Positions 46,350 to 57,763 of a stretch of 64,000 nucleotides of DNA are shown here, piece by piece; the first letter of the stretch is position 1; the number at the start of each line of letters is the position of its first letter. The notes below the pieces were generated by a model. That model was given only the letters and a program-made list of their open reading frames with translations, made no database searches and was not told the DNA's origin. The DNA comes from Syntrophorhabdaceae bacterium (GTDB lineage Bacteria > Desulfobacterota > Syntrophorhabdia > Syntrophorhabdales > Syntrophorhabdaceae): positions 3,104,001 to 3,168,000 of the forward strand of contig OY762209.1 of NCBI GenBank assembly GCA_963665295.1, in the 5' to 3' direction. Both the position numbers and the translations under genes were made by a program.

Positions 46350-47582
46350 ATGAATAGCGGGGAATTAAAGGAGCGGCTGGAACAAAAAGAACAGGAGTTG
46401 AGAATACTGCACGAAGTGGCTCAGGATATCAGCAGCAACCTTGACCTTCATGAGCTTCTCGTAAAAATAGTCGACATGGTTATGAATACCATTGCCGCTG
46501 ATTCGTGCCTGATTTATCTGTACGATAAGCATAACGAAGAGCTTACCCTCACAGCGTCAAGTAACGCGGACCACAAGATGCTGGGAAGGGTGAAACTCAA
46601 AATAGGCGAAGGTGTTACGGGTTGGGTTGCAAAAGAGAAGAAGCCCCTGGCCTTGGAAGCCAAGGCCTACAAGGATCAGAGATTCAAAACCTTCACATCC
46701 CTGGACGACGAAAAATATGAAGGCTTCCTCTCCATACCTATTCTCTCCAAGAATGAGATCGTGGGTGTAATGAACATCAGAAACCGCAAGGAACATCGTT
46801 ACCCGACCCACCAGATAGATCTCCTGTTCACTGTGGGCAGGTATCTGGGGAGCGCCATTGCAAATGCGAGGATCTACGAGGAAGTGGTGAGCAAGGCAAA
46901 ACAACTCGACCTGCTCTCGGAAGTATCCCGTACCATCGTTTCCGATTATTACCTGAAGGAGATCCTCCAGCTTATTGTCACCATGACCGCGGAAGTGATG
47001 GATTCGAAGATATGTTCGATAATGCTTCTGGATGAGAAGAAGGAAGAGTTGATCATCGCTGCCACCCAGAGCCTGAGCCAGGAGTACCTGAGCAAGCCGA
47101 ACCTGAAGGTCGGCCAGTCGGTGAGCGGCAGGGTGGTTCTGGAGAAGAAGCCCATTACCGTCGAGGACGTGACAATGGAGAAGGGCTTTATGTTTCCCGA
47201 TGTGGCGAGAAAGGAGGGCATTGTATCACTTCTCTCCGTTCCCATGATGATCAAAGACAGGGTCGTAGGGGTTATCAACAGCTATACCCAGAGCGAACAT
47301 AACTTCAATAAAGAGGAAATTGACATTCTTCAGACAGTGGCCAATCAGGCTGCCGTGGCCATAGAAAACACCCACCTGAGTCAGGAGATATTCGCCGCAA
47401 AAGAGGCCCTCGAAGCCAGAAAGACCATTGAGCGGGCAAAAGGAATACTGATGAGGGAATTGGGCGTCTCCGAGGATGAGGCATACAAGAAGATCCACAA
47501 GAAGAGTATGGACCTCAGAAAGACCATGAAAGAGATTGCCGAGGCAATCATCCTGACCTTCGACCTCAAGAGAAAGATTTAA
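46350..47582 (+). CDS. GAF-GAF-ANTAR RNA-binding antitermination regulator
   Basis: Two GAF repeats ('GEGVTGWVA', 'GQSVSGRV...LLSVPM'); C-terminal ANTAR 'RKTIERAKGILM...SEDEAYKKIHKKSMD...MKEIAEAI'. Confidence 0.93.
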   Translation: MNSGELKERLEQKEQELRILHEVAQDISSNLDLHELLVKIVDMVMNTIAADSCLIYLYDKHNEELTLTASSNADHKMLGRVKLKIGEGVTGWVAKEKKPLALEAKAYKDQRFKTFTSLDDEKYEGFLSIPILSKNEIVGVMNIRNRKEHRYPTHQIDLLFTVGRYLGSAIANARIYEEVVSKAKQLDLLSEVSRTIVSDYYLKEILQLIVTMTAEVMDSKICSIMLLDEKKEELIIAATQSLSQEYLSKPNLKVGQSVSGRVVLEKKPITVEDVTMEKGFMFPDVARKEGIVSLLSVPMMIKDRVVGVINSYTQSEHNFNKEEIDILQTVANQAAVAIENTHLSQEIFAAKEALEARKTIERAKGILMRELGVSEDEAYKKIHKKSMDLRKTMKEIAEAIILTFDLKRKI

Positions 47583-47636
47583 CACCTCTTTGCATCAGCC
47601 CTCCGGTTGACCGGGTTCCGCCCTTCCGTACCGGCA

Positions 47637-47665
47637 GGTTACCATATGGGTCAGGCGGGAACTTG
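47637..47665 (+). promoter_or_regulatory. Bipartite motif GGTTAmCA-N16-ACTTG, copy 1 (candidate alternative-sigma promoter)
   Basis: GGTTACCA 47637-47644 and ACTTG 47661-47665; same spacing as copy 2 at 48386. Confidence 0.5.
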
Positions 47666-47691
47666 ACACGGGGTGCTGAAAGGAGTATTAT
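47663..47691 (+). promoter_or_regulatory. Sigma70-type promoter upstream of the sigma-factor leader
   Basis: TTGACA-N17-TATTAT. Confidence 0.7.
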
Positions 47692-47701
47692 AAACTTAAG
47701 T

Positions 47702-47796
47702 AGACATTGAAGTCTCCTGGTAGAGGCTGCTAATAAAAGTTAGGCGGACTTAGGCGTCCAAATCACCATGGGTGGTTTGAACGCCTTTTTTGTTTT
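47702..47796 (+). promoter_or_regulatory. ANTAR-target dual hexaloop leader overlapping an intrinsic terminator
   Basis: AGAC-ATTGAA-GTCT (47702-47715) and GGAC-TTAGGC-GTCC (47746-47759). The second hairpin overlaps the terminator AGGCGTCCAAATCACC-ATG-GGTGGTTTGAACGCCT-TTTTTGTTTT. Confidence 0.75.
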
Positions 47797-47822
47797 CGTC
47801 CGCGACAAACGAGGTGGCGAAC

Positions 47823-48386
47823 ATGGAGAGAAACAGGGTTACCAATGAGGACGGAAAATGGGGCATGACCTTCGACAGCCTTGTGCACAGGATATCCCCT
47901 ACGCTTAAAAGAATCACGAAGCGGCTGAACGGCCACTTCTCTTTCTTTAACGATGAAGACCTGTACCAGGAGGCGCTGACCCACCTGTGGGTCGATTACA
48001 GGGAAGGCGTGCTTGGCGACAAGACCGACAGCTATATTCTGCAGGGGTGTTATTTTCACCTGAGAAACTACCTCCGCAAGGTTCAGGATAATGTGGTCGT
48101 CTTGAGCTTCAACGCCCCTGTCGGCGAAGACGGTACGAGATTGGAGGATCTGGCGGCGATTGATGACGGGGTTCGCTTCGATCATCTGGAAAGCAGGCTG
48201 CAAATGGAGGTGGCGGAGAAGAGATATTTTACGGAGAGAGAAAAGAATGTGTTGATGCTCTTTCTGGAAGGCATGTCGATGAGGGAAATCGGCAGCAAGC
48301 TCGGCATATCCCACGTGATGGTGCTGAAAATAAGGAACCGGATCAAAGACAAATATGTACAGTTCAATAAGGAAACGCAAAATTAG
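47823..48386 (+). CDS. Alternative sigma-70 family factor (regions 2 and 4 only; ECF/SigH-like)
   Basis: Region 2 'EDLYQEALTHLW'; region 4 'FTEREKNVL...EGMSMREIGSKLGISHVMV'. Start could be 47823 or 47865. Confidence 0.88.
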   Translation: MERNRVTNEDGKWGMTFDSLVHRISPTLKRITKRLNGHFSFFNDEDLYQEALTHLWVDYREGVLGDKTDSYILQGCYFHLRNYLRKVQDNVVVLSFNAPVGEDGTRLEDLAAIDDGVRFDHLESRLQMEVAEKRYFTEREKNVLMLFLEGMSMREIGSKLGISHVMVLKIRNRIKDKYVQFNKETQN

Positions 48387-48414
48387 GTTAACAGACTCTT
48401 GATGGTGCGACTTG
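48386..48414 (+). promoter_or_regulatory. Bipartite motif GGTTAmCA-N16-ACTTG, copy 2
   Basis: GGTTAACA 48386-48393 and ACTTG 48410-48414. Confidence 0.5.
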
Positions 48415-48447
48415 TAGTATTATAGCCCAAAGTAAGGGCATAGAAAT

Positions 48448-48500
48448 CACGTTGATGTGGATTGAAACGACGGCGTTCTGGCAAAACAGAGCGCCGTCTT
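48448..48500 (+). promoter_or_regulatory. Second ANTAR-like dual hexaloop leader with overlapping strong hairpin
   Basis: CAC-GTTGAT-GTG (48448-48459) and AAC-GACGGC-GTT (48466-48477), both with G at loop position 4. The second overlaps GACGGCGTTCTG-gcaaaa-CAGAGCGCCGTC. Confidence 0.55.
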
Positions 48501-48687
48501 GCGTTGCAGTCGGGTGGCAGGGACATGTCGGGACGGGTGATCCTGGAGGCGTCTACCGGAAAACATAAAGGAGGTGGAGGGAAGGACTGTGTGAAACAGT
48601 TTGCAAGAAGGGCAGTCGAGATAGTAAAACGTTGGATGACAAAGAATTCCGTGTTCCGGCACGGAGCACAAAATCAGGAGGTGTGAA

Positions 48688-49638
48688 GTGAAATTGGCGA
48701 GATATTTACTGCTATTTTTCGTGTTATCATTTTTCGCATGCACAGGTATTCTCCATGCAGACGAAGCAAAGGCACCGGAAGCAAAAGGCATCGATAAGAC
48801 CATAAAGGTTGCGGGCGATCAGGCAGCCGAGGGTGCTCAGAAAGAGGTTCCCAAAGCGGACGCTCCCAAAGCGGAGGAGCCGCCGGCCCTTACGGGCAGC
48901 GTATCAACCGCTGTTTTAAACAGGTACATCTTCCGTGGATACCGGATCGGTGAAAGCGGGCTTGTAATCCAACCGTCCGTTTCCGCTTCGTTCAAAGGCT
49001 TTACCGCAACGTACTGGGGGAACTATGATACCCACCAGACGAACACCACGTCCGCCACATTTGCGAGTGAGGGGCAGGGAGGATACAATGAAACGGACTT
49101 GACCTTGAGTTATACCTACACGATAAACAAGCTCTCTCTGACGGGCGGGTATATCCACTATGAGTTGAGGTACGCAAAGTCGACGGGTGAGTTCTTTACC
49201 ACCATCGCCTATGATATGCTCACAAAGCCTACCCTGTCAGTCTACCAGGACGTGAGCGCCTATCCCGGGACCTACCTCAATCTTTCCTTTGCCCATTCCT
49301 TCAACCTTCCTAAGGATATAACCCTCGATCTCGGTGCGTCTTTCGGATATGAGGCGGGACAGGGAAGATACTGGGAGACCTATCAGCCTTCCACGGCGGA
49401 CTACAGTGGAAGCAAGTACAAGGGGTTCCACGACGGTATGGTAAAAGCGGGGTTTACGATCCCTGTGACCAAAGCCTTTCTTGTCCAGCCTGTGTATCAG
49501 TACTGGTTCCCCCTCTCGGCGGATTCGAACAGGACCTATGGTACCGACCCGGCGAGCGGTCTCCGGATACCCTATAACCCGAACGGCTATCTCACGAGCA
49601 GCCAGGTGTATGGAGTGAACTTTGTGTATAATTTCTAG
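48688..49638 (+). CDS. TorF/Gcw_chp-like outer-membrane beta-barrel protein
   Basis: Signal peptide, 'NRYIFRG', 'VIQPSV', 'ETDLTLSY', C-terminal Phe; lies upstream of amtB-glnK. Confidence 0.75.
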   Translation: MKLARYLLLFFVLSFFACTGILHADEAKAPEAKGIDKTIKVAGDQAAEGAQKEVPKADAPKAEEPPALTGSVSTAVLNRYIFRGYRIGESGLVIQPSVSASFKGFTATYWGNYDTHQTNTTSATFASEGQGGYNETDLTLSYTYTINKLSLTGGYIHYELRYAKSTGEFFTTIAYDMLTKPTLSVYQDVSAYPGTYLNLSFAHSFNLPKDITLDLGASFGYEAGQGRYWETYQPSTADYSGSKYKGFHDGMVKAGFTIPVTKAFLVQPVYQYWFPLSADSNRTYGTDPASGLRIPYNPNGYLTSSQVYGVNFVYNF

Positions 49639-49705
49639 TTTCAGCAGTATTTTTGCCGCAGTGTTGCGGTAACCCCCTGACTGATCAGGTTCTAATCGCA
49701 TTAAA

Positions 49706-49761
49706 AGACATTGAAGTCTCTTTGAGCTACGCCTCTTGCCGCACCAGAGGCGAGGCGTAGC
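49706..49761 (+). promoter_or_regulatory. ANTAR-type hexaloop hairpin (exact 15-nt copy of 47702-47716) followed by a 10-bp hairpin
   Basis: AGACATTGAAGTCTC at 49706-49720; GCTACGCCTC...GAGGCGTAGC at 49726-49761. Confidence 0.6.
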
Positions 49762-49886
49762 GCGGAAGTACCGTAAACGGACTGTCCGGTTCGCAAGGTT
49801 GTTGCCCGAGGTGCGTGCAGATGCGGGATTCGGAATTCGGAAAACAGGCTCAAGAACGGCTATTTCCAAACTGGAGGAGGAAGACT

Positions 49887-50153
49887 TTGAGTGACGAAAC
49901 AGACGAAAGGATTCCGGCGCATTGGTATGAGGCAACAGAGTCGAGGTATGTATGTTTGTGCTGTCACAAAGTCTTTAGTCGGGTATATAAGCCCAGAAAC
50001 ATCCTCCGAAGGAAGAAGAAAGGCCGCGGGGCCAACATGTTCTCCCTGTGGGCCTGGCACAACTTCAGGAAACATTTGTTGAAGTGCTGGGGCAACCGCA
50101 GTCTTCCGGGAAGGGAATCATCGGGCCACGGTAATATGGGCAAAACCGACTGA
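49887..50153 (+). CDS. Small basic Cys/His protein (putative zinc finger), 88 aa
   Basis: GGAGGAGG 6 nt before TTG; 'YVCLCCHK...HNFRKHLLKC'. Confidence 0.55.
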   Translation: MSDETDERIPAHWYEATESRYVCLCCHKVFSRVYKPRNILRRKKKGRGANMFSLWAWHNFRKHLLKCWGNRSLPGRESSGHGNMGKTD

Positions 50154-50183
50154 CACGGGTAGCCGAAAAAAAGGAGGCTCAAG

Positions 50184-52107
<1,924 letters not shown>

Positions 52108-52457: not shown

Positions 52458-53810
52458 TCAGAAGAAATACCACGCGGCGACTCTGAAGGAGTGTAATGTC
52501 GCATCTTTGCTGAGAGTCGGAATGACGCCCAGGCCCGACGGATCGGGGACTGTCCCGTAGTTCGCGTAGCGGGTGGCGAAGTACGCGTACTCCGTGGCAA
52601 ATCTCACTGAATCATTTACGTCATAGCAGAGGCTCACAATGTACTGGGTAGCGTTCTGCACTGTATTGGCGTGGGCGAAGCGGGAAGTGAGAGAGGTCTT
52701 GGCCGCATCATAGGCGCTGCTTGTGTCGTTTCTGAGATAACCGTACCAGCCGCTTACGAACAGCCTATCGGTAAGGTGGTATGATATCTGTCCCCAGCCA
52801 CCGTACATCTTTGGTGCGACGAAATCCGGGGTCTGGCCGGCAGGCTGGGAAGGCGGTGTGGTGAGGTCGCTCGGTCTCGCATAGGAGCCGGCGGAGTATG
52901 CCCTCGACTGGAGCCATGAGGGGTTCTGCGCGACAAAGAGGATGCCCGATACAGACAACGCTCCCGCCTTGCCGGATGGTTTTTGGGAGACTATGGGGAC
53001 GAAACCTTTGAGCGCGAGTCCCCAGGAATCCACATCCTTGTACGCATAGGTGATCGAGGTGGGGGCGCCGGCGGGGCCCGTGTACTGGGTGGCCCACCTT
53101 TTCTCCTGTCCGTAGAAGGCATCGATGTTCCACTGCAATTTCCACGAACCGATGGTTCCCCACCTGTCCGATGACCAGCCCAGAGAGGTTTCGTAGAAGG
53201 GCATCTGACTCGCGGTAAACCCGTCCACCACCCCTGTGTCGGTCATCGAGCGGTTGCTTCCGAGGGTATTGGTGGGAGACAAGAGGGCAAAAGAAAGGTT
53301 CCAATCCTTGGCAAATTTTCGTTCTACCCTGATCATGGGCTGGCGGCTCCCCTTCACGAAGGGAGTAAGGTCGTTGCCGCTCGTGATCATATTGGCGTAA
53401 GTGGGAAGGAAACCCCACTTTTGAAAGGTGTGCCCGATAACAAGCTTTGTCTGAGGCCAGTCGAAGGTCATGAAGGCGTGTCTCATGGCAAAGGAACCCC
53501 TTGGGGCGCCCGCATACACGCCATTGAAGTCGCCTTCGACAAAGGCCGATGTTTTTGCGCCCCATGCCTCCGGGCCTCGCGTAAGGAAGTTTATACGGGA
53601 CCCGCTGGAATACCCCGAGGTTATGCCTTCCTTCCCGTTGGGGTCCCTGTAGGCGCCGGACCCGTGCCTGCCCTGGTCCGTGTAATCCATCTCAAGCTTG
53701 ACATAACCGCCGATAGTAAGATCCCACATGCTTGTGGCGCTGCCCGCGAGAGCAGCGGCCGGGGCGGCAAGGAGCAGCAATAGATGCAGAATAATGATGA
53801 TTTTTGTCAT
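52458..53810 (-). CDS. DcaP-like outer-membrane porin
   Basis: Signal peptide, 'IGGYVKL', 'AFVEGDF', 'MRHAF', C-terminal 'WYFF'. Start taken at ATG 53810. Confidence 0.75.
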   Translation of the reverse strand: MTKIIIILHLLLLLAAPAAALAGSATSMWDLTIGGYVKLEMDYTDQGRHGSGAYRDPNGKEGITSGYSSGSRINFLTRGPEAWGAKTSAFVEGDFNGVYAGAPRGSFAMRHAFMTFDWPQTKLVIGHTFQKWGFLPTYANMITSGNDLTPFVKGSRQPMIRVERKFAKDWNLSFALLSPTNTLGSNRSMTDTGVVDGFTASQMPFYETSLGWSSDRWGTIGSWKLQWNIDAFYGQEKRWATQYTGPAGAPTSITYAYKDVDSWGLALKGFVPIVSQKPSGKAGALSVSGILFVAQNPSWLQSRAYSAGSYARPSDLTTPPSQPAGQTPDFVAPKMYGGWGQISYHLTDRLFVSGWYGYLRNDTSSAYDAAKTSLTSRFAHANTVQNATQYIVSLCYDVNDSVRFATEYAYFATRYANYGTVPDPSGLGVIPTLSKDATLHSFRVAAWYFF

Positions 53811-53978
53811 TCGTGGCGTCACGCTTCCATTAACGGGGGTGATCTCCTGAAAGGCGTGGCCGGTGGGTATTCGTCCGAAAGTCTTCGGGAGTCCGGTGAT
53901 AGATAGCATAGGGATGCGGAGGTTGTCAAATCATTCGGTGGGGTTTGCCGGAAAGTTTCCGTGAATGGCTGGACGCCC

Positions 53979-54012
53979 TTGACATTCAAATAATCTATGT
54001 TAATGTTATAAT
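53979..54012 (+). promoter_or_regulatory. Promoter for the peptide-rSAM unit
   Basis: Extended -10 TGTTATAAT (54004-54012), with TTGACA/TTCAAA upstream. Confidence 0.55.
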
Positions 54013-54062
54013 TATAGCCTGAAGATATGAACAAAAATTTACGCGAAAGGAGGTGAGAAGCC

Positions 54063-54185
54063 ATGAAGAAGATCCTGAGTAAAGAGGTCCTTGAGAAAGA
54101 GGCATCCTTTTGGACCACGATGAAGGAGGCTCTCAAAGAGAGTCCGGCGAAAGAATGCCGCAAGTGAAAGAGCTGAAAGAGCTAG
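54063..54185 (+). CDS. Putative selenocysteine-containing RiPP precursor, 40 aa: MKKILSKEVLEKEASFWTTMKEALKESPAKECRKUKSUKS
   Basis: AAAGGAGGTGA SD at 54046-54056; in-frame TGA at 54165 and 54174; TAG stop at 54183; SECIS-like hairpin immediately after; rSAM/SPASM gene downstream. Absent from the ORF track. Confidence 0.8.
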
Positions 54186-54186
54186 C

Positions 54187-54203
54187 GTTGCAGGTTCTGC
54201 AAC
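54187..54203 (+). promoter_or_regulatory. Bacterial SECIS element candidate
   Basis: GTTGCAG-GTT-CTGCAAC, nearly identical to the E. coli fdhF SECIS core GUUGCAGGUCUGCAC; starts 10 nt after the second TGA. Confidence 0.75.
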
Positions 54204-54213
54204 CCAAAAAGAA

Positions 54214-54247
54214 GAGGCAGATATGACGGAGTTGTCATATCTGCCTC
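54214..54247 (+). terminator. Perfect 14-bp hairpin between precursor and maturase (attenuator/mRNA stabiliser)
   Basis: GAGGCAGATATGAC-ggagtt-GTCATATCTGCCTC with only a weak U-tract. Confidence 0.6.
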
Positions 54248-54275
54248 CTTGCATCAATGGAGGTGGGAAAAACGG

Positions 54276-55334
54276 ATGTCCGTTAATCGAGCATATTCAT
54301 TCTTCGTCCAGTGGCACCTGACGGAAAGATGCAACCTCGCGTGTACCCACTGTTACCAAGACAAGGCAAGAGCAACGGAGATGACCCTGGAGCAGATAGT
54401 GGGGGCCATGTCCGACGTGGTCGACATGCTGGACTCATGGTCCGGTGCGTACGACATGGAATTTTCCCGGAGTTTCAACATTACCGGCGGGGAGCCCTTT
54501 CTTAGAAAAGACCTCTTTGCGATCCTCGAGGCGGCGGCGTACCACGGCTTTGACAATTATCTTCTCACCAACGGGACACTTATCGACAGGGAGAAGGCCC
54601 GCACCCTGTCCGACCTCGGCGTCCGGGGTGTCCAGGTGAGTTTTGAGGGGCCCAGGGAGGTTCATGAAGCGATAAGGGGCAAAGGAACCTTTCCTCTCTC
54701 CGTCGCAGGCGTATGTCATCTCCGGGATGCGGGAATACCGGTGACCATGAACGTCACCCTTTCTTCTCTCAATGCGCCCTATCTCCCGGAACTTATGAAC
54801 CTTGCCTCCGACCTGGGCGTGCCGAGGCTCGGGTTTTCGAGGCTGGTGCCTTCAGGCAGGGGGATGGGCCTTCTTGGAAGCATGCTTTCAAGAAGGGAAG
54901 TGAAAACTCTCTATGAGGAAATATTTCGTCGCACCCGTGAGGACGTGGAAGTGGTGACCGGCGATCCCGTGGCGGCCCAGATGGTTGTGCCCCCGGACAC
55001 GGAGGGAGCCGACGCAGAGGGTATGGAGACTGTGCCCAACGGAGGGTGTGCCGCGGGCGTTTCCGGTCTGACGTTTCTCCCTGACGGCACGATCACCCCC
55101 TGCCGGAGACTGAATATTCCTCTTGGTAATGTGCGGACCGATTCGCTCCGTGAGATATGGGCAACTTCGCCGGTGCTGGAAGGATTGAGGACGAAAAGCG
55201 CATATAAAGGAAAGTGCGGGACCTGCCGGCGATGGTCGGCTTGCCGAGGATGCAGGGCGATAGCCTATCAATACTCGCTCTCAAGAGGTATGGGTGACTA
55301 CCTTTCAGATGATCCTCAGTGCTTTATCGAGTAG
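54276..55334 (+). CDS. Radical SAM/SPASM domain protein, probable peptide maturase
   Basis: 'CNLACTHC' (CxxxCxxC), 'TGGEP', 'LTNGT'; SPASM 'CAAG...DGTITPC...LGNV...CGTC...CRGCRA...DPQC'; GGAGGT upstream of ATG 54276. Confidence 0.93.
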   Translation: MSVNRAYSFFVQWHLTERCNLACTHCYQDKARATEMTLEQIVGAMSDVVDMLDSWSGAYDMEFSRSFNITGGEPFLRKDLFAILEAAAYHGFDNYLLTNGTLIDREKARTLSDLGVRGVQVSFEGPREVHEAIRGKGTFPLSVAGVCHLRDAGIPVTMNVTLSSLNAPYLPELMNLASDLGVPRLGFSRLVPSGRGMGLLGSMLSRREVKTLYEEIFRRTREDVEVVTGDPVAAQMVVPPDTEGADAEGMETVPNGGCAAGVSGLTFLPDGTITPCRRLNIPLGNVRTDSLREIWATSPVLEGLRTKSAYKGKCGTCRRWSACRGCRAIAYQYSLSRGMGDYLSDDPQCFIE

Positions 55335-56164: not shown

Positions 56165-57333
56165 TCAATAAAGAAACATGGGTTTGCCGAGGGTATCCCG
56201 CACCTTGGGCCTGTATTCCTCAAGATCGTAGAGGGCGGTAACGTCGACCTGTTTTCTCGCAGCGCCTACAAGGTCGAGAGGGACGGTCGTATATATTCCC
56301 TGTTGGAGGGCGACCATTCTTCCTGTGTGGCCCATAGCTATCTGGTCGAGGGCGAGGTTGCCATAGGAGACCGCGACCATTCTGTCCAGGGAATCGGGCG
56401 CGCCGGAACGCATGATGTAAGCCAGTTGTTGGTAGATGATGTTGATGCCCGTTCTGTCCTTGATCTCGTGTGCCACTATGTTGCCTATGCCTCCGAGCTT
56501 CTTGTGGCCGTACGCATCTGCCTCACCACTTTCGAGAATCAGCCCTCCCAGTTGGCGTGCGCCTTCAGAAATGGTCATTATGGCATAGTGCGACGGGTTC
56601 CGTGAGCGGTCTTCGACGAGAAAACGGGCGACCCGTCTACGTCAAAGGGCACCTCCGATATTAACGCCCGGTCCACGTCAGCGAGGTACGCGGCAAACAA
56701 GGAGGTTTCCCCCGAGTTTCTGCCGAATAGTTCCACCACGCATATGCGCTCGTGGGAGCCCGCGGTGGTCCTGAGTGCGTGGATTGAGTCCACGGAGCGT
56801 GTTACCGCGGTCGAAAAGCCGATACAGAAGCCGGTGCCGAACACGTCATTATCCATTGTTTTCGGAATGGCGACAATCTGAAACCCTGCCTTGTGGAGAT
56901 GATTTGCGTAGCTCAGAGTGTCGTCTCCCCCGATGGCGATAATTGCATCCAGCGAGAGATAATCAAGCACATCCATTATATGGGGAGTGCAATCGACCGT
57001 ATTGCCCGGACCTGTAATGCGCTTGCTTTCCGGTATGAAGTCGGGGACTTCGCCAGGCTTCATATTTGCGGGATTGGTCCGTGAGGTGTGGAGAACCGTT
57101 CCACCCGTGCGGTCGATGGTGCGAACCCTTTCCGCAGGCAGGGGCATGGTCCATTTTTCCACTGAACCGGGATCGTCGGGGTTAAGGCACATAAGGCCCA
57201 TCCACCCCCTCCTGATGCCTATGATATCGATCTTGTGGGTGGACGCCCGTGTCACGACCGCCTTGATCGCCACATTGAGGCCGGGCACGTCACCGCCACC
57301 TGTAAGTATCCCGATATGCTGTTTGTTGGTCAT
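56165..57333 (-). pseudogene. pfkA: 6-phosphofructokinase split by a 1-nt frameshift near 56634
   Basis: '[13 protein letters not shown]', 'IGGDDT', 'PKTMDND', 'ELFGRNSG' in one frame; '[25 protein letters not shown]...LAYIMRSGAPDSLDR' in the adjacent frame. Confidence 0.85.
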
Positions 57334-57763
57334 CCGGTTCTCCTCCCTTTGGTATTGACTACGTGAGGACACGCATTCCTGTGGTCGGCCGACGGGTGAA
57401 CGGTGTCGCTGTCATTTTCTCTACCTCGGTGTAAACCTGTTTCCCCTTCTTCATCGGTTTCCATTCATCATTTTGCCGGTTTGATGCTGATTATGCCATA
57501 TTCGCTCATCTGAAGGCGATCTCCTGGATCAACCCGAGGTGTTGGGGGACCGGATAGTACGAGACTCGGCGGGAGGAGAAAAATGGTCGCGCAAGAACGG
57601 GGGCTGCGCGGCCACGCTGTCCACGATTTTTCACTGTGTCCATTTATAATGCGAATGTATGCGTAGGGATGAAGATTGTCAATATCGGCCCGGCCGATTG
57701 TCTTGGTCCCCGCCAATCGTGTCTCGGGACCGCGTGCCGGCGCGGATGTAAAGAAAGGAGGCC

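Follow-up and report, generated by a model that had tools for sequence, protein, structure and literature searches.

A 2026 compilation of 119 prokaryotic selenoprotein families (PMC13188914) contains one identifiable precursor of a peptide synthesized on ribosomes and modified after translation (RiPP), the 'selenobacteriocin' SbtA. Its partner SbtM, a radical S-adenosylmethionine (SAM) enzyme with a SPASM domain, removes four hydrogens from peptides containing Cys or selenocysteine (Sec) to give a thiooxazole (accessible part of PMC11002830). PapB and Tte1186 bind peptide selenium at their first auxiliary cluster and form selenoethers in vitro, and PapB, which links Cys to the residue at i+4 in a CX3D motif, accepts Sec in vitro (accessible part of PMC10177961). 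CrpC has seven SPASM cysteines, makes thioethers and carries a RiPP recognition element, or RRE (accessible part of PMC13692751). Here, we describe a two-gene system found in a 64,000-nt window of the genome of a Syntrophorhabdaceae bacterium (GCA_963665295.1, contig OY762209.1, positions 3,104,001 to 3,168,000), in which a short gene with two in-frame UGA codons lies upstream of a radical SAM/SPASM gene. On comparative grounds, this pair most likely encodes a selenopeptide RiPP precursor and its maturase.

The peptide gene runs on the plus strand from an ATG at 54063 to a TAG at 54183-54185 and is preceded by a strong Shine-Dalgarno (SD) site, AAAGGAGGTGA (54046-54056, plus strand); GGAGG-type sites also precede its homologues. 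With UGA read as Sec, it encodes the 40-residue peptide MKKILSKEVLEKEASFWTTMKEALKESPAKECRKUKSUKS, whose Cys codon (54156-54158) and two TGA codons (54165-54167 and 54174-54176) place Cys, Sec and Sec at i, i+3 and i+6 of the C-terminal sequence C-R-K-U-K-S-U-K-S. The database annotation of this gene is a 34-aa hypothetical protein ending at the first UGA. The enzyme gene (54276-55334, plus strand, 352 aa) has its ATG 90 nt past the peptide TAG, behind an SD of its own (GGAGGTG, 54259-54265), and two hairpins lie in between (54187-54203 and 54214-54247, both on the plus strand). The first-pass annotation of this DNA, made from the letters alone, had proposed the SD site, the hidden 40-aa CxxUxxU frame with its TGC, two TGA and TAG codons, and a 352-aa radical SAM/SPASM gene 90 nt downstream on the same strand, and we found each of these where it had been placed. 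The single SECIS-like hairpin that it had described after the peptide was partly right: a 7-bp hairpin of the bacterial selenocysteine insertion sequence (SECIS) type does stand directly 3' of the peptide stop, but two hairpins are present, not one. It had also noted that no protease, transporter or PqqD gene adjoins the locus, and this held for the open reading frames (ORFs) of the window and a Pfam scan, the flanks being a divergent porin-like gene upstream and a convergent 116-aa ORF without Pfam match downstream. The Sec machinery that it had suggested looking for is encoded in the closed, 5.5-Mb host genome, which has selA, selB, two selD genes and tRNA-Sec. Of the two selD copies (G000:C1:639779-640693 and 5230927-5231841), one is without and one with an in-frame TGA; a comparison of a selD-region fragment with E. 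coli DNA gave no match and was uninformative.

The codon pattern of the peptide core occurred once in the window and in none of 100 shuffles, the pattern itself being derived from the finding. A looser version gave one match in the whole genome versus four in the reversed control. When the bare codon pattern was sought across the genome collection, it matched at least 120 stretches (80 listed) in unrelated taxa, apparently by chance, and was not used. Given these results, the codon motif cannot by itself count as proof; the SECIS region, too, is no more stable in its context than shuffled sequence (z -0.35 to -1.47). At the level of sequence, the proof of the system is its conservation across genomes rather than the motif at a single locus.

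To obtain peptide cores from 82 loci, we relied on the leader motif, the SD and the Cys, and permitted Cys, TGA or another stop at both Sec positions. Cores were recovered from 76 loci and reduced to 73 distinct ones; the other six loci comprise two with no adjacent peptide (L052, L085), a remnant (L010), a contig end (L063), and L295 and L302, which failed the core filter yet show two TGA on inspection. Both positions were TGA in 73 of 73 distinct cores and never TAA or TAG. The first stop after the second Sec varied (TAA 33, TAG 25, TGA 15), the Cys codon was TGC or TGT, and the Ser between the two UGAs was encoded variously by AGC, AGT, TCC or TCG. Furthermore, when the codons from the first UGA on were compared between cores, in pairs that are not independent, the fraction of differences that were synonymous was 0.63 in the Sec frame versus 0.17 and 0.23 in the other frames.

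These observations bear on the possibility that the first UGA is a plain stop ending a 34-aa protein, or that this DNA belongs to a frame beginning M-P-Q-V-K-E-L-K-E-L, which the predictions of some gene callers join to the enzyme. Databases do end the peptide at the first UGA in 119 of the 120 matches listed from a profile search, and among the 73 loci the other frame starts with an ATG in 49 and continues open into the enzyme in 5; proteins P0004, P0005 and P0009 begin in this way. However, both versions fit poorly with the lack of TAA or TAG at either position in the 73 cores, the varying later stop, the synonymous bias for the Sec frame, the covarying SECIS and the existence of a Cys/Cys homologue. 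We consider them very improbable, and the alternative reading frame was rejected by the comparison of the 73 cores. The small gene is most likely translated through both UGA codons as Sec.

A first genome scan yielded 33 loci, 14 of which had near-full-length enzymes at 42-58% identity. An intact peptide gene lay upstream in 13 of these 14, and the remaining one, L010, has a leaderless remnant before the enzyme (2801-2920), while its genome, G073, holds an intact copy at another site (L284 1408-1527). The profile search, which covered 5.8 billion proteins, gave 181 matches; of the 120 that were listed, 119 stop after C-x-x, where the first UGA stands, and the remaining one, P0290, runs on with Cys in both places. 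A metagenome scan for the Dehalococcoidia-type Cys variant gave 0 matches and the DNA of P0290 was not recovered, and a protein atlas query with P0290 returned no usable match. The almost strict retention of Sec, with one Cys form seen, suggests that selenium itself is required. As a family, the peptides combine a basic leader bearing a conserved KEAxFW motif, in which E13 is invariant, with a C-x-x-U-K-x-U-K core; the median net charge of the homologues is +8, and Lys36 and Lys39 are kept in 69 and 72 of 73 cores, respectively. No NCBIfam model matched the peptide, its Cys form or three truncated homologues even at an E value of 10, and no Pfam model matched the peptide or its Cys form.

The SECIS-type hairpin (54187-54203) starts one base past the stop and forms 7 bp at -8.5 kcal/mol; its apical loop is 16-17 nt away from the second UGA and 25-26 nt away from the first. 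The model of a bacterial SECIS published in PMC13188914 (accessible part) comprises a loop of 3-9 nt, a stem of 4-16 bp, a G in loop positions 1-2, a distance of 16-37 nt from the UGA and a minimum free energy of at most -7.5 kcal/mol, and the window hairpin satisfies it for both UGAs. The hairpin pattern was present in 71 of 73 cores, as 48 distinct hairpins in which 285 of 288 cells of the six pairs were paired, versus 14-35% with slid partners. Two of these pairs were not imposed by the search pattern, and both vary on both sides; the innermost is CG in 27 hairpins, AT in 10, TA in 10 and TG in 1. Thus the homologues, whose alignment had been proposed along with the first-pass annotation, have TGA at both positions in every core, a covarying hairpin and one Cys/Cys member. 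The SECIS hairpin of the host formate dehydrogenase has a GGUCU loop like that of the peptide SECIS. A genome-wide SECIS survey with loose motifs returned mostly noise, the credible cases being formate dehydrogenase, SelD, an MvhD-like and a HesB-like protein, and Rfam, at E values up to 10, gave no SECIS or other credible family at the locus.

The second hairpin (54214-54247) has a 15-bp stem (-25.1 kcal/mol, z -5.45) and is terminator- or stabiliser-like, with no U run on the plus strand here. Of 74 loci, 54 have a hairpin of -12 kcal/mol or stronger at this site, and the 20 without one are compact. Its 5' arm keeps GGCAG in 39 of 54 loci across phyla, an unusual conservation for a terminator. 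At L018, L086, L089, L289 and L300, the enzyme frame is open from the Cys/Sec codons through the SECIS, and overlap or translational coupling of the two genes is thus possible in compact loci.

Tandem control codons and a SECIS followed by a strong hairpin upstream of the enzyme gene could also make the small ORF a selenium-sensing attenuator, in which stalling or read-through at the UGAs would set the second hairpin and enzyme expression. The GGCAG with which that hairpin often starts is partly complementary to the SECIS arms, and coupling would be possible in the 5 of 73 loci with an open enzyme frame. This role is nevertheless highly unlikely: when the SECIS 5' arm was removed to mimic a ribosome at the stop, the second hairpin was at least 80% kept in 48 of 54 loci, and it is absent altogether from 20 of 74. 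Moreover, the leader is conserved as protein, a Cys/Cys form exists, and the peptide gene lies away from the enzyme in G069 and G073 and on another contig in 3 of 56 Nitrospirota genomes. The attenuation model was rejected by the folding tests.

Judged by their distribution, the peptide and enzyme genes are co-inherited, and the system is carried by anaerobic bacteria of several phyla. Our sample of Nitrospirota, the phylum of locus L006, held 301 genomes. Once two partial or weak peptide matches were excluded, it contained 57 full-length peptide matches, every one with two TGA, and 58 enzymes scoring at least 462 bits, followed by a gap to six at 312-326 bits. The enzyme was present in 56 of the 57 peptide genomes and the peptide in 56 of the 58 enzyme genomes; where both occurred, they lay on one contig within about 2 kb in 53 genomes and on separate contigs in 3. 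Furthermore, 51 of the 57 genomes with the peptide had selA, versus 95 of the 244 others. Of the six peptide genomes without it, three had a tRNA-Sec scoring above the cut-off (with selB as well in one), and no marker was found in the other three.

In the window's own family (69 genomes), initial searches detected the enzyme in 32 genomes and the peptide in 33, and the two genomes that at first seemed to have the peptide alone turned out to carry an enzyme gene next to it, intact in one and frameshifted in the other. The final tally was 33 genomes with both genes (one enzyme frameshifted), one with the enzyme only (G036) and 35 with neither. The system was found in 11 of 251 genomes sampled from the same phylum, and in 13 of 301 genomes of Dehalococcoidia, the class of L088, where all 14 loci have two TGA and 13 an adjoining enzyme. 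A fourth lineage, with enzymes resembling proteins labelled Thermodesulfobium, shows the order enzyme-peptide-enzyme in 4 of 4 genomes and a peptide ending K-S-TGA-TAG. Source labels of proteins in the peptide/enzyme family include Thermodesulfobium and Syntrophorhabdus. At L289 (5986-7980) and L387-L390, the peptide ends at the second UGA followed by TAG, giving a C-terminal Sec or only one Sec, and is flanked by two paralogous enzymes that are about 41% identical.

G069 and G073 hold an intact peptide gene away from the enzyme gene, and another gene is inserted between the two at L066 and L083; peptide genes apart from the enzyme suit a diffusible product better than a cis-acting leader. At L384 (797-3250, genome G910), a peptide gene apart from the enzyme directly adjoins selD and the selenium metabolism gene yedF. 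With flanks of 1.5-5 kb, none of the other gene clusters recurred at over 11 of the 57 loci. Across lineages, the neighbour with the widest spread is a YceI-like gene (10 of 57 loci) located beside or inside the cassette, for example at L006, L083, L084, L298 and L380.

The enzyme carries the Pfam domains Radical_SAM and SPASM, with the CxxxCxxC motif at C19-C26 and seven SPASM cysteines (258, 276, 314, 317, 323, 326 and 349) that are conserved in the family. The first-pass view that it has no N-terminal RRE agrees with the absence of an RRE or PqqD domain by Pfam scan and with the AlphaFold model (mean predicted local distance difference test score 87.8), in which the barrel begins at residue 7; no RRE or PqqD was found among the shared neighbours of 57 loci either. 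The segment between the SAM and GGE motifs is 42-44 residues long in seven family enzymes versus 35-36 in SbtM and the heme enzymes. It holds an invariant Trp55, and residues 33-66 are acidic (median charge -4.5), which makes this segment a candidate leader-binding surface.

No NCBIfam model reached its cut-off with the enzyme. AhbC, AhbD, NirJ and NirJ1/2 share its compact size and fold and give its best NCBIfam scores, and the first-pass annotation had named clustering with heme or cofactor enzymes as a point that would speak against a peptide maturase. We rejected a heme-enzyme identity, the scores being at most 181 bits against cut-offs of 500-650. In a maximum-likelihood tree (LG+G4) of 42 rows hand-chosen from 154, twelve family enzymes and two unplaced relatives formed a clade with support 97/92, and joining the family with eight heme enzymes was rejected (approximately unbiased test, p-AU 0.003). 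The host genome has its own AhbC (698 bits, cut-off 650) and an AhbD-like gene (437 of 500 bits) elsewhere.

The next-best-scoring relatives (about 240-325 bits on the family alignment profile) adjoin proteins with Gly/Ser-rich C-x-x-C tails in 12 loci, which were picked after inspection; 2 of 4 scanned neighbours of this kind are TIGR04222 proteins. These relatives fall outside the 97/92 clade and differ from the family in having Cys instead of Sec in their partners, which are membrane proteins or have a YxxP-type leader with a separate PqqD. Radical SAM/SPASM genes stand beside membrane proteins with Gly/Ser-rich C-x-x-C tails (TIGR04222 in two) at L041 (G000:C1:327020-330964), the one tail locus of the host genome, and at L370-L375, L100, L101, L104, L107 and L119, and P0026 is a fusion of such an enzyme to a C-x-x-C-tail protein. 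The accessible part of PMC12452194 proposes TIGR04222 tails as MNIO-modified, with many clusters lacking an MNIO, and contains no link of these tails to radical SAM enzymes; the radical SAM loci are possibly an oxygen-free alternative to MNIO modification of the tails. At L103 (4932-6411), a related radical SAM enzyme lies upstream of PqqD and a 46-aa peptide ending CRQCSSCHGCR, without NCBIfam or Pfam match, and this may be an all-Cys cousin system.

Several observations weigh against the interpretation of the pair as a selenopeptide precursor and its maturase. Most RiPP clusters have an RRE, a protease or an exporter, and this locus has none of them, the five PqqD-domain genes of the genome lying far away. 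Only one Cys-substituted homologue, P0290, was seen among the 120 listed matches, and its DNA and neighbours were not recovered. No selA, selB or tRNA-Sec scored above the cut-off in three metagenome-assembled genomes from Nitrospirota and one from Chloroflexota that carry the peptide and whose completeness is not stated. In G036, a genome of 96% completeness, the enzyme is present but no peptide could be detected. The best NCBIfam scores of the enzyme are to the heme enzymes NirJ2 (181 of 500 bits) and AhbD (176 of 500), the sister group of the family is unresolved in the tree backbone, and joining the family with four SbtM, which sit on a long branch, was not rejected (p-AU 0.17). An open auxiliary site does not single out thioether chemistry, because the AhbD-like enzyme of the host (L040) also has seven Cys. 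Finally, the counts of genomes are not counts of independent events, since the genomes are kin and mostly assembled from metagenomes. The G036 enzyme (L381 122-5889) is divergent from an arsenic-resistance cluster comprising an arsenite methyltransferase, ACR3 and an ArsR-like protein.

Weighing these points against the conservation described above, we propose that both UGAs would be decoded as Sec via the one downstream SECIS, which is placed within SelB range. The basic, probably helical KEAxFW leader would then dock directly on the RRE-less enzyme, perhaps at the acidic helix extension around Trp55, and the 5'-deoxyadenosyl radical would abstract a hydrogen from the peptide core, while substrate selenium or sulfur may bind the open iron of the three-Cys auxiliary cluster. 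The most likely product would be Se-C/S-C crosslinks, that is seleno- or thioether rings, which we favour with somewhat less than even confidence; the selenoether idea had been raised at first pass, and the open auxiliary cluster site lends it an argument from sequence. The sequence does not reveal the crosslink acceptor: Lys36 and Lys39 each directly follow a Sec and also stand four residues past Cys32 and Sec35, respectively, and would fit either i+4 acceptors, as in the CX3D motif of PapB, or simple recognition. Radical chemistry other than crosslinks or oxazoles appears improbable.

Within the same framework of a precursor and its maturase, SbtM-type chemistry is unlikely, though less so than other radical chemistry: each Cys or Sec would be converted to a thio(seleno)oxazole (-4 Da), yielding a bufferin-like chelator made without oxygen. 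It would accord with the removal of four hydrogens by SbtM (accessible part of PMC11002830), with the tree grouping that was not rejected, and with next-tier relatives that follow TIGR04222-type Cys tails, linked elsewhere to MNIO near bufferin enzymes (accessible part of PMC12452194). However, the eighth SPASM Cys and the N-terminal region of about 200 residues of SbtM are absent here, identity is 30%, and Lys follows Sec where the Sec of SbtA sits in S-x-U-G/S.

The product probably remains in the cytoplasm with its leader attached, since the system has neither a signal peptide nor a protease or exporter, and our guess, a tentative one, is that it serves as a soft-metal ligand or redox buffer. 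The same lack of protease and exporter would also suit an unmodified C-x-x-U-x-x-U acting as a three-donor ligand for Fe-S or soft metals, as a small subunit, activator or electron carrier of an enzyme that acts on another substrate. The three chalcogens are spaced as in a ferredoxin-like CxxCxxC, the open auxiliary site could be filled by Sec, and most genomes have one peptide per enzyme. We nonetheless hold this to be quite improbable, given the layout of leader and C-terminal core, the lack of a conserved pathway gene supplying another substrate, and relatives that adjoin varied Cys-tailed proteins and a PqqD-plus-peptide cluster, as peptide-modifying enzymes do.

Returning to the modified selenopeptide, a fuller version that we entertain as a possibility, at less than even confidence, is a natural RiPP with selenoether rings from encoded Sec, made by an RRE-less enzyme via an acidic barrel helix. 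It may also be, with similar reserve, that one SECIS outside the coding region serves two UGAs three codons apart. If true, a wide and unstudied group of enzymes that act on C-terminal C-x-x-C tails would have its selenium member in this system, which could be an oxygen-free counterpart of MNIO metal-binding peptide systems.

Other features of the window were also noted. A sigma-70-like promoter candidate with an extended -10 element (53985-54012, plus strand) precedes the peptide gene with 10 of 12 consensus matches, two such sites being found versus 1.0 expected by chance. The porin-like outer-membrane protein (52458-53909, minus strand) has a weak PF13609 match and is a neighbour common only to L053, from the same genus. 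A nitrogen-linked cluster (46350-52107, plus strand) encodes a GAF-GAF-ANTAR regulator, a sigma-70-like ORF, an ammonium transporter and a P-II protein, together with a 316-aa ORF that looks secreted and matched neither Pfam nor NCBIfam. The phosphofructokinase gene (56165-57372, minus strand) is split over two frames into ORFs of 264 and 137 aa, both PF00365; its homologue in L053 is a single 413-aa frame, and the window copy has a frameshift or a sequencing error.

The peptide/enzyme family is apparently undescribed in the literature that we searched: no description was found in accessible sources, subscription papers and bioRxiv supplements lying outside that search. Table 1 of PMC13188914 has no entry matching the peptide, and the accessible parts of PMC3531188, PMC12912966 and bioRxiv 10.1101/2022.07.06.499078 do not mention the family. 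The system is common in its hosts: about one fifth of the Nitrospirota sample and half of the genomes in the window's family have it. Consisting of two genes, it is a minimal setting in which to ask whether selenoether-linked peptides are made in nature, what role an open auxiliary site plays with a native Sec substrate, and by what means one SECIS serves a pair of closely spaced UGA codons.

Among enzymes of known chemistry, CteB, PapB, Tte1186 and CrpC resemble the new enzyme in having a seven-Cys SPASM domain with a three-Cys first auxiliary cluster (accessible parts of PMC10177961 and PMC13692751), and the C344-C362 spacing of CteB, in the numbering of the accessible part of PMC10177961, equals that of C258-C276. 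The highest-ranking structure and sequence matches include CteB and SkfB, yet at only about 20% identity, and ranthipeptide synthases and CrpC differ in that their natural substrates use Cys and not Sec; CrpC has an RRE, whereas the new enzyme has none. The ACGX system (TIGR04340) is also distinct, as the enzyme scores 151.8 of 400 bits and the peptide lacks an ACGX repeat.

The system described here would work in the manner of SbtA/SbtM (TIGR04081/TIGR04082), as a radical SAM RiPP system whose precursor is a selenopeptide, and is not a member of that system. In both, a short gene with in-frame UGA codons read as Sec immediately precedes the gene of a radical SAM/SPASM enzyme (accessible part of PMC11002830; PMC13188914), and both occur in Sec-using anaerobes of the same phylum, being co-resident in G244, G273 and G303. 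In G244, they lie about 5 kb apart on one contig (L334, G244:C54:64000-83999). That the peptide is not SbtA-like, as the first-pass annotation had stated, was compared with real reference loci (19 SbtA/SbtM loci in 18 of 251 genomes) and stood, and RiPP models of NCBIfam, including those of SbtA and SbtM, did not reach their cut-offs. Neither SbtA nor SbtM was found in the host genome, TIGR04081 had no match at the locus, and the enzyme scored 126.8 of 350 bits on TIGR04082, over model positions 196-516 only. SbtM, of about 500-540 aa, has eight SPASM Cys (CxGxGC, 11 of 11) and an extra N-terminal region of about 200 residues, whereas the new enzyme, 30% identical, has 352 aa, seven such Cys and no counterpart of that region. 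In SbtA, the leader is hydrophobic and the S-x-U-G/S motifs, with Sec between small residues, are scattered far apart; in contrast, the new peptide joins a basic leader containing KEAxFW to one C-x-x-U-K-x-U-K end in which Lys follows Sec, with a single SECIS past the stop. The new family would be a second selenoprotein RiPP precursor, unrelated to SbtA in leader, core and enzyme.

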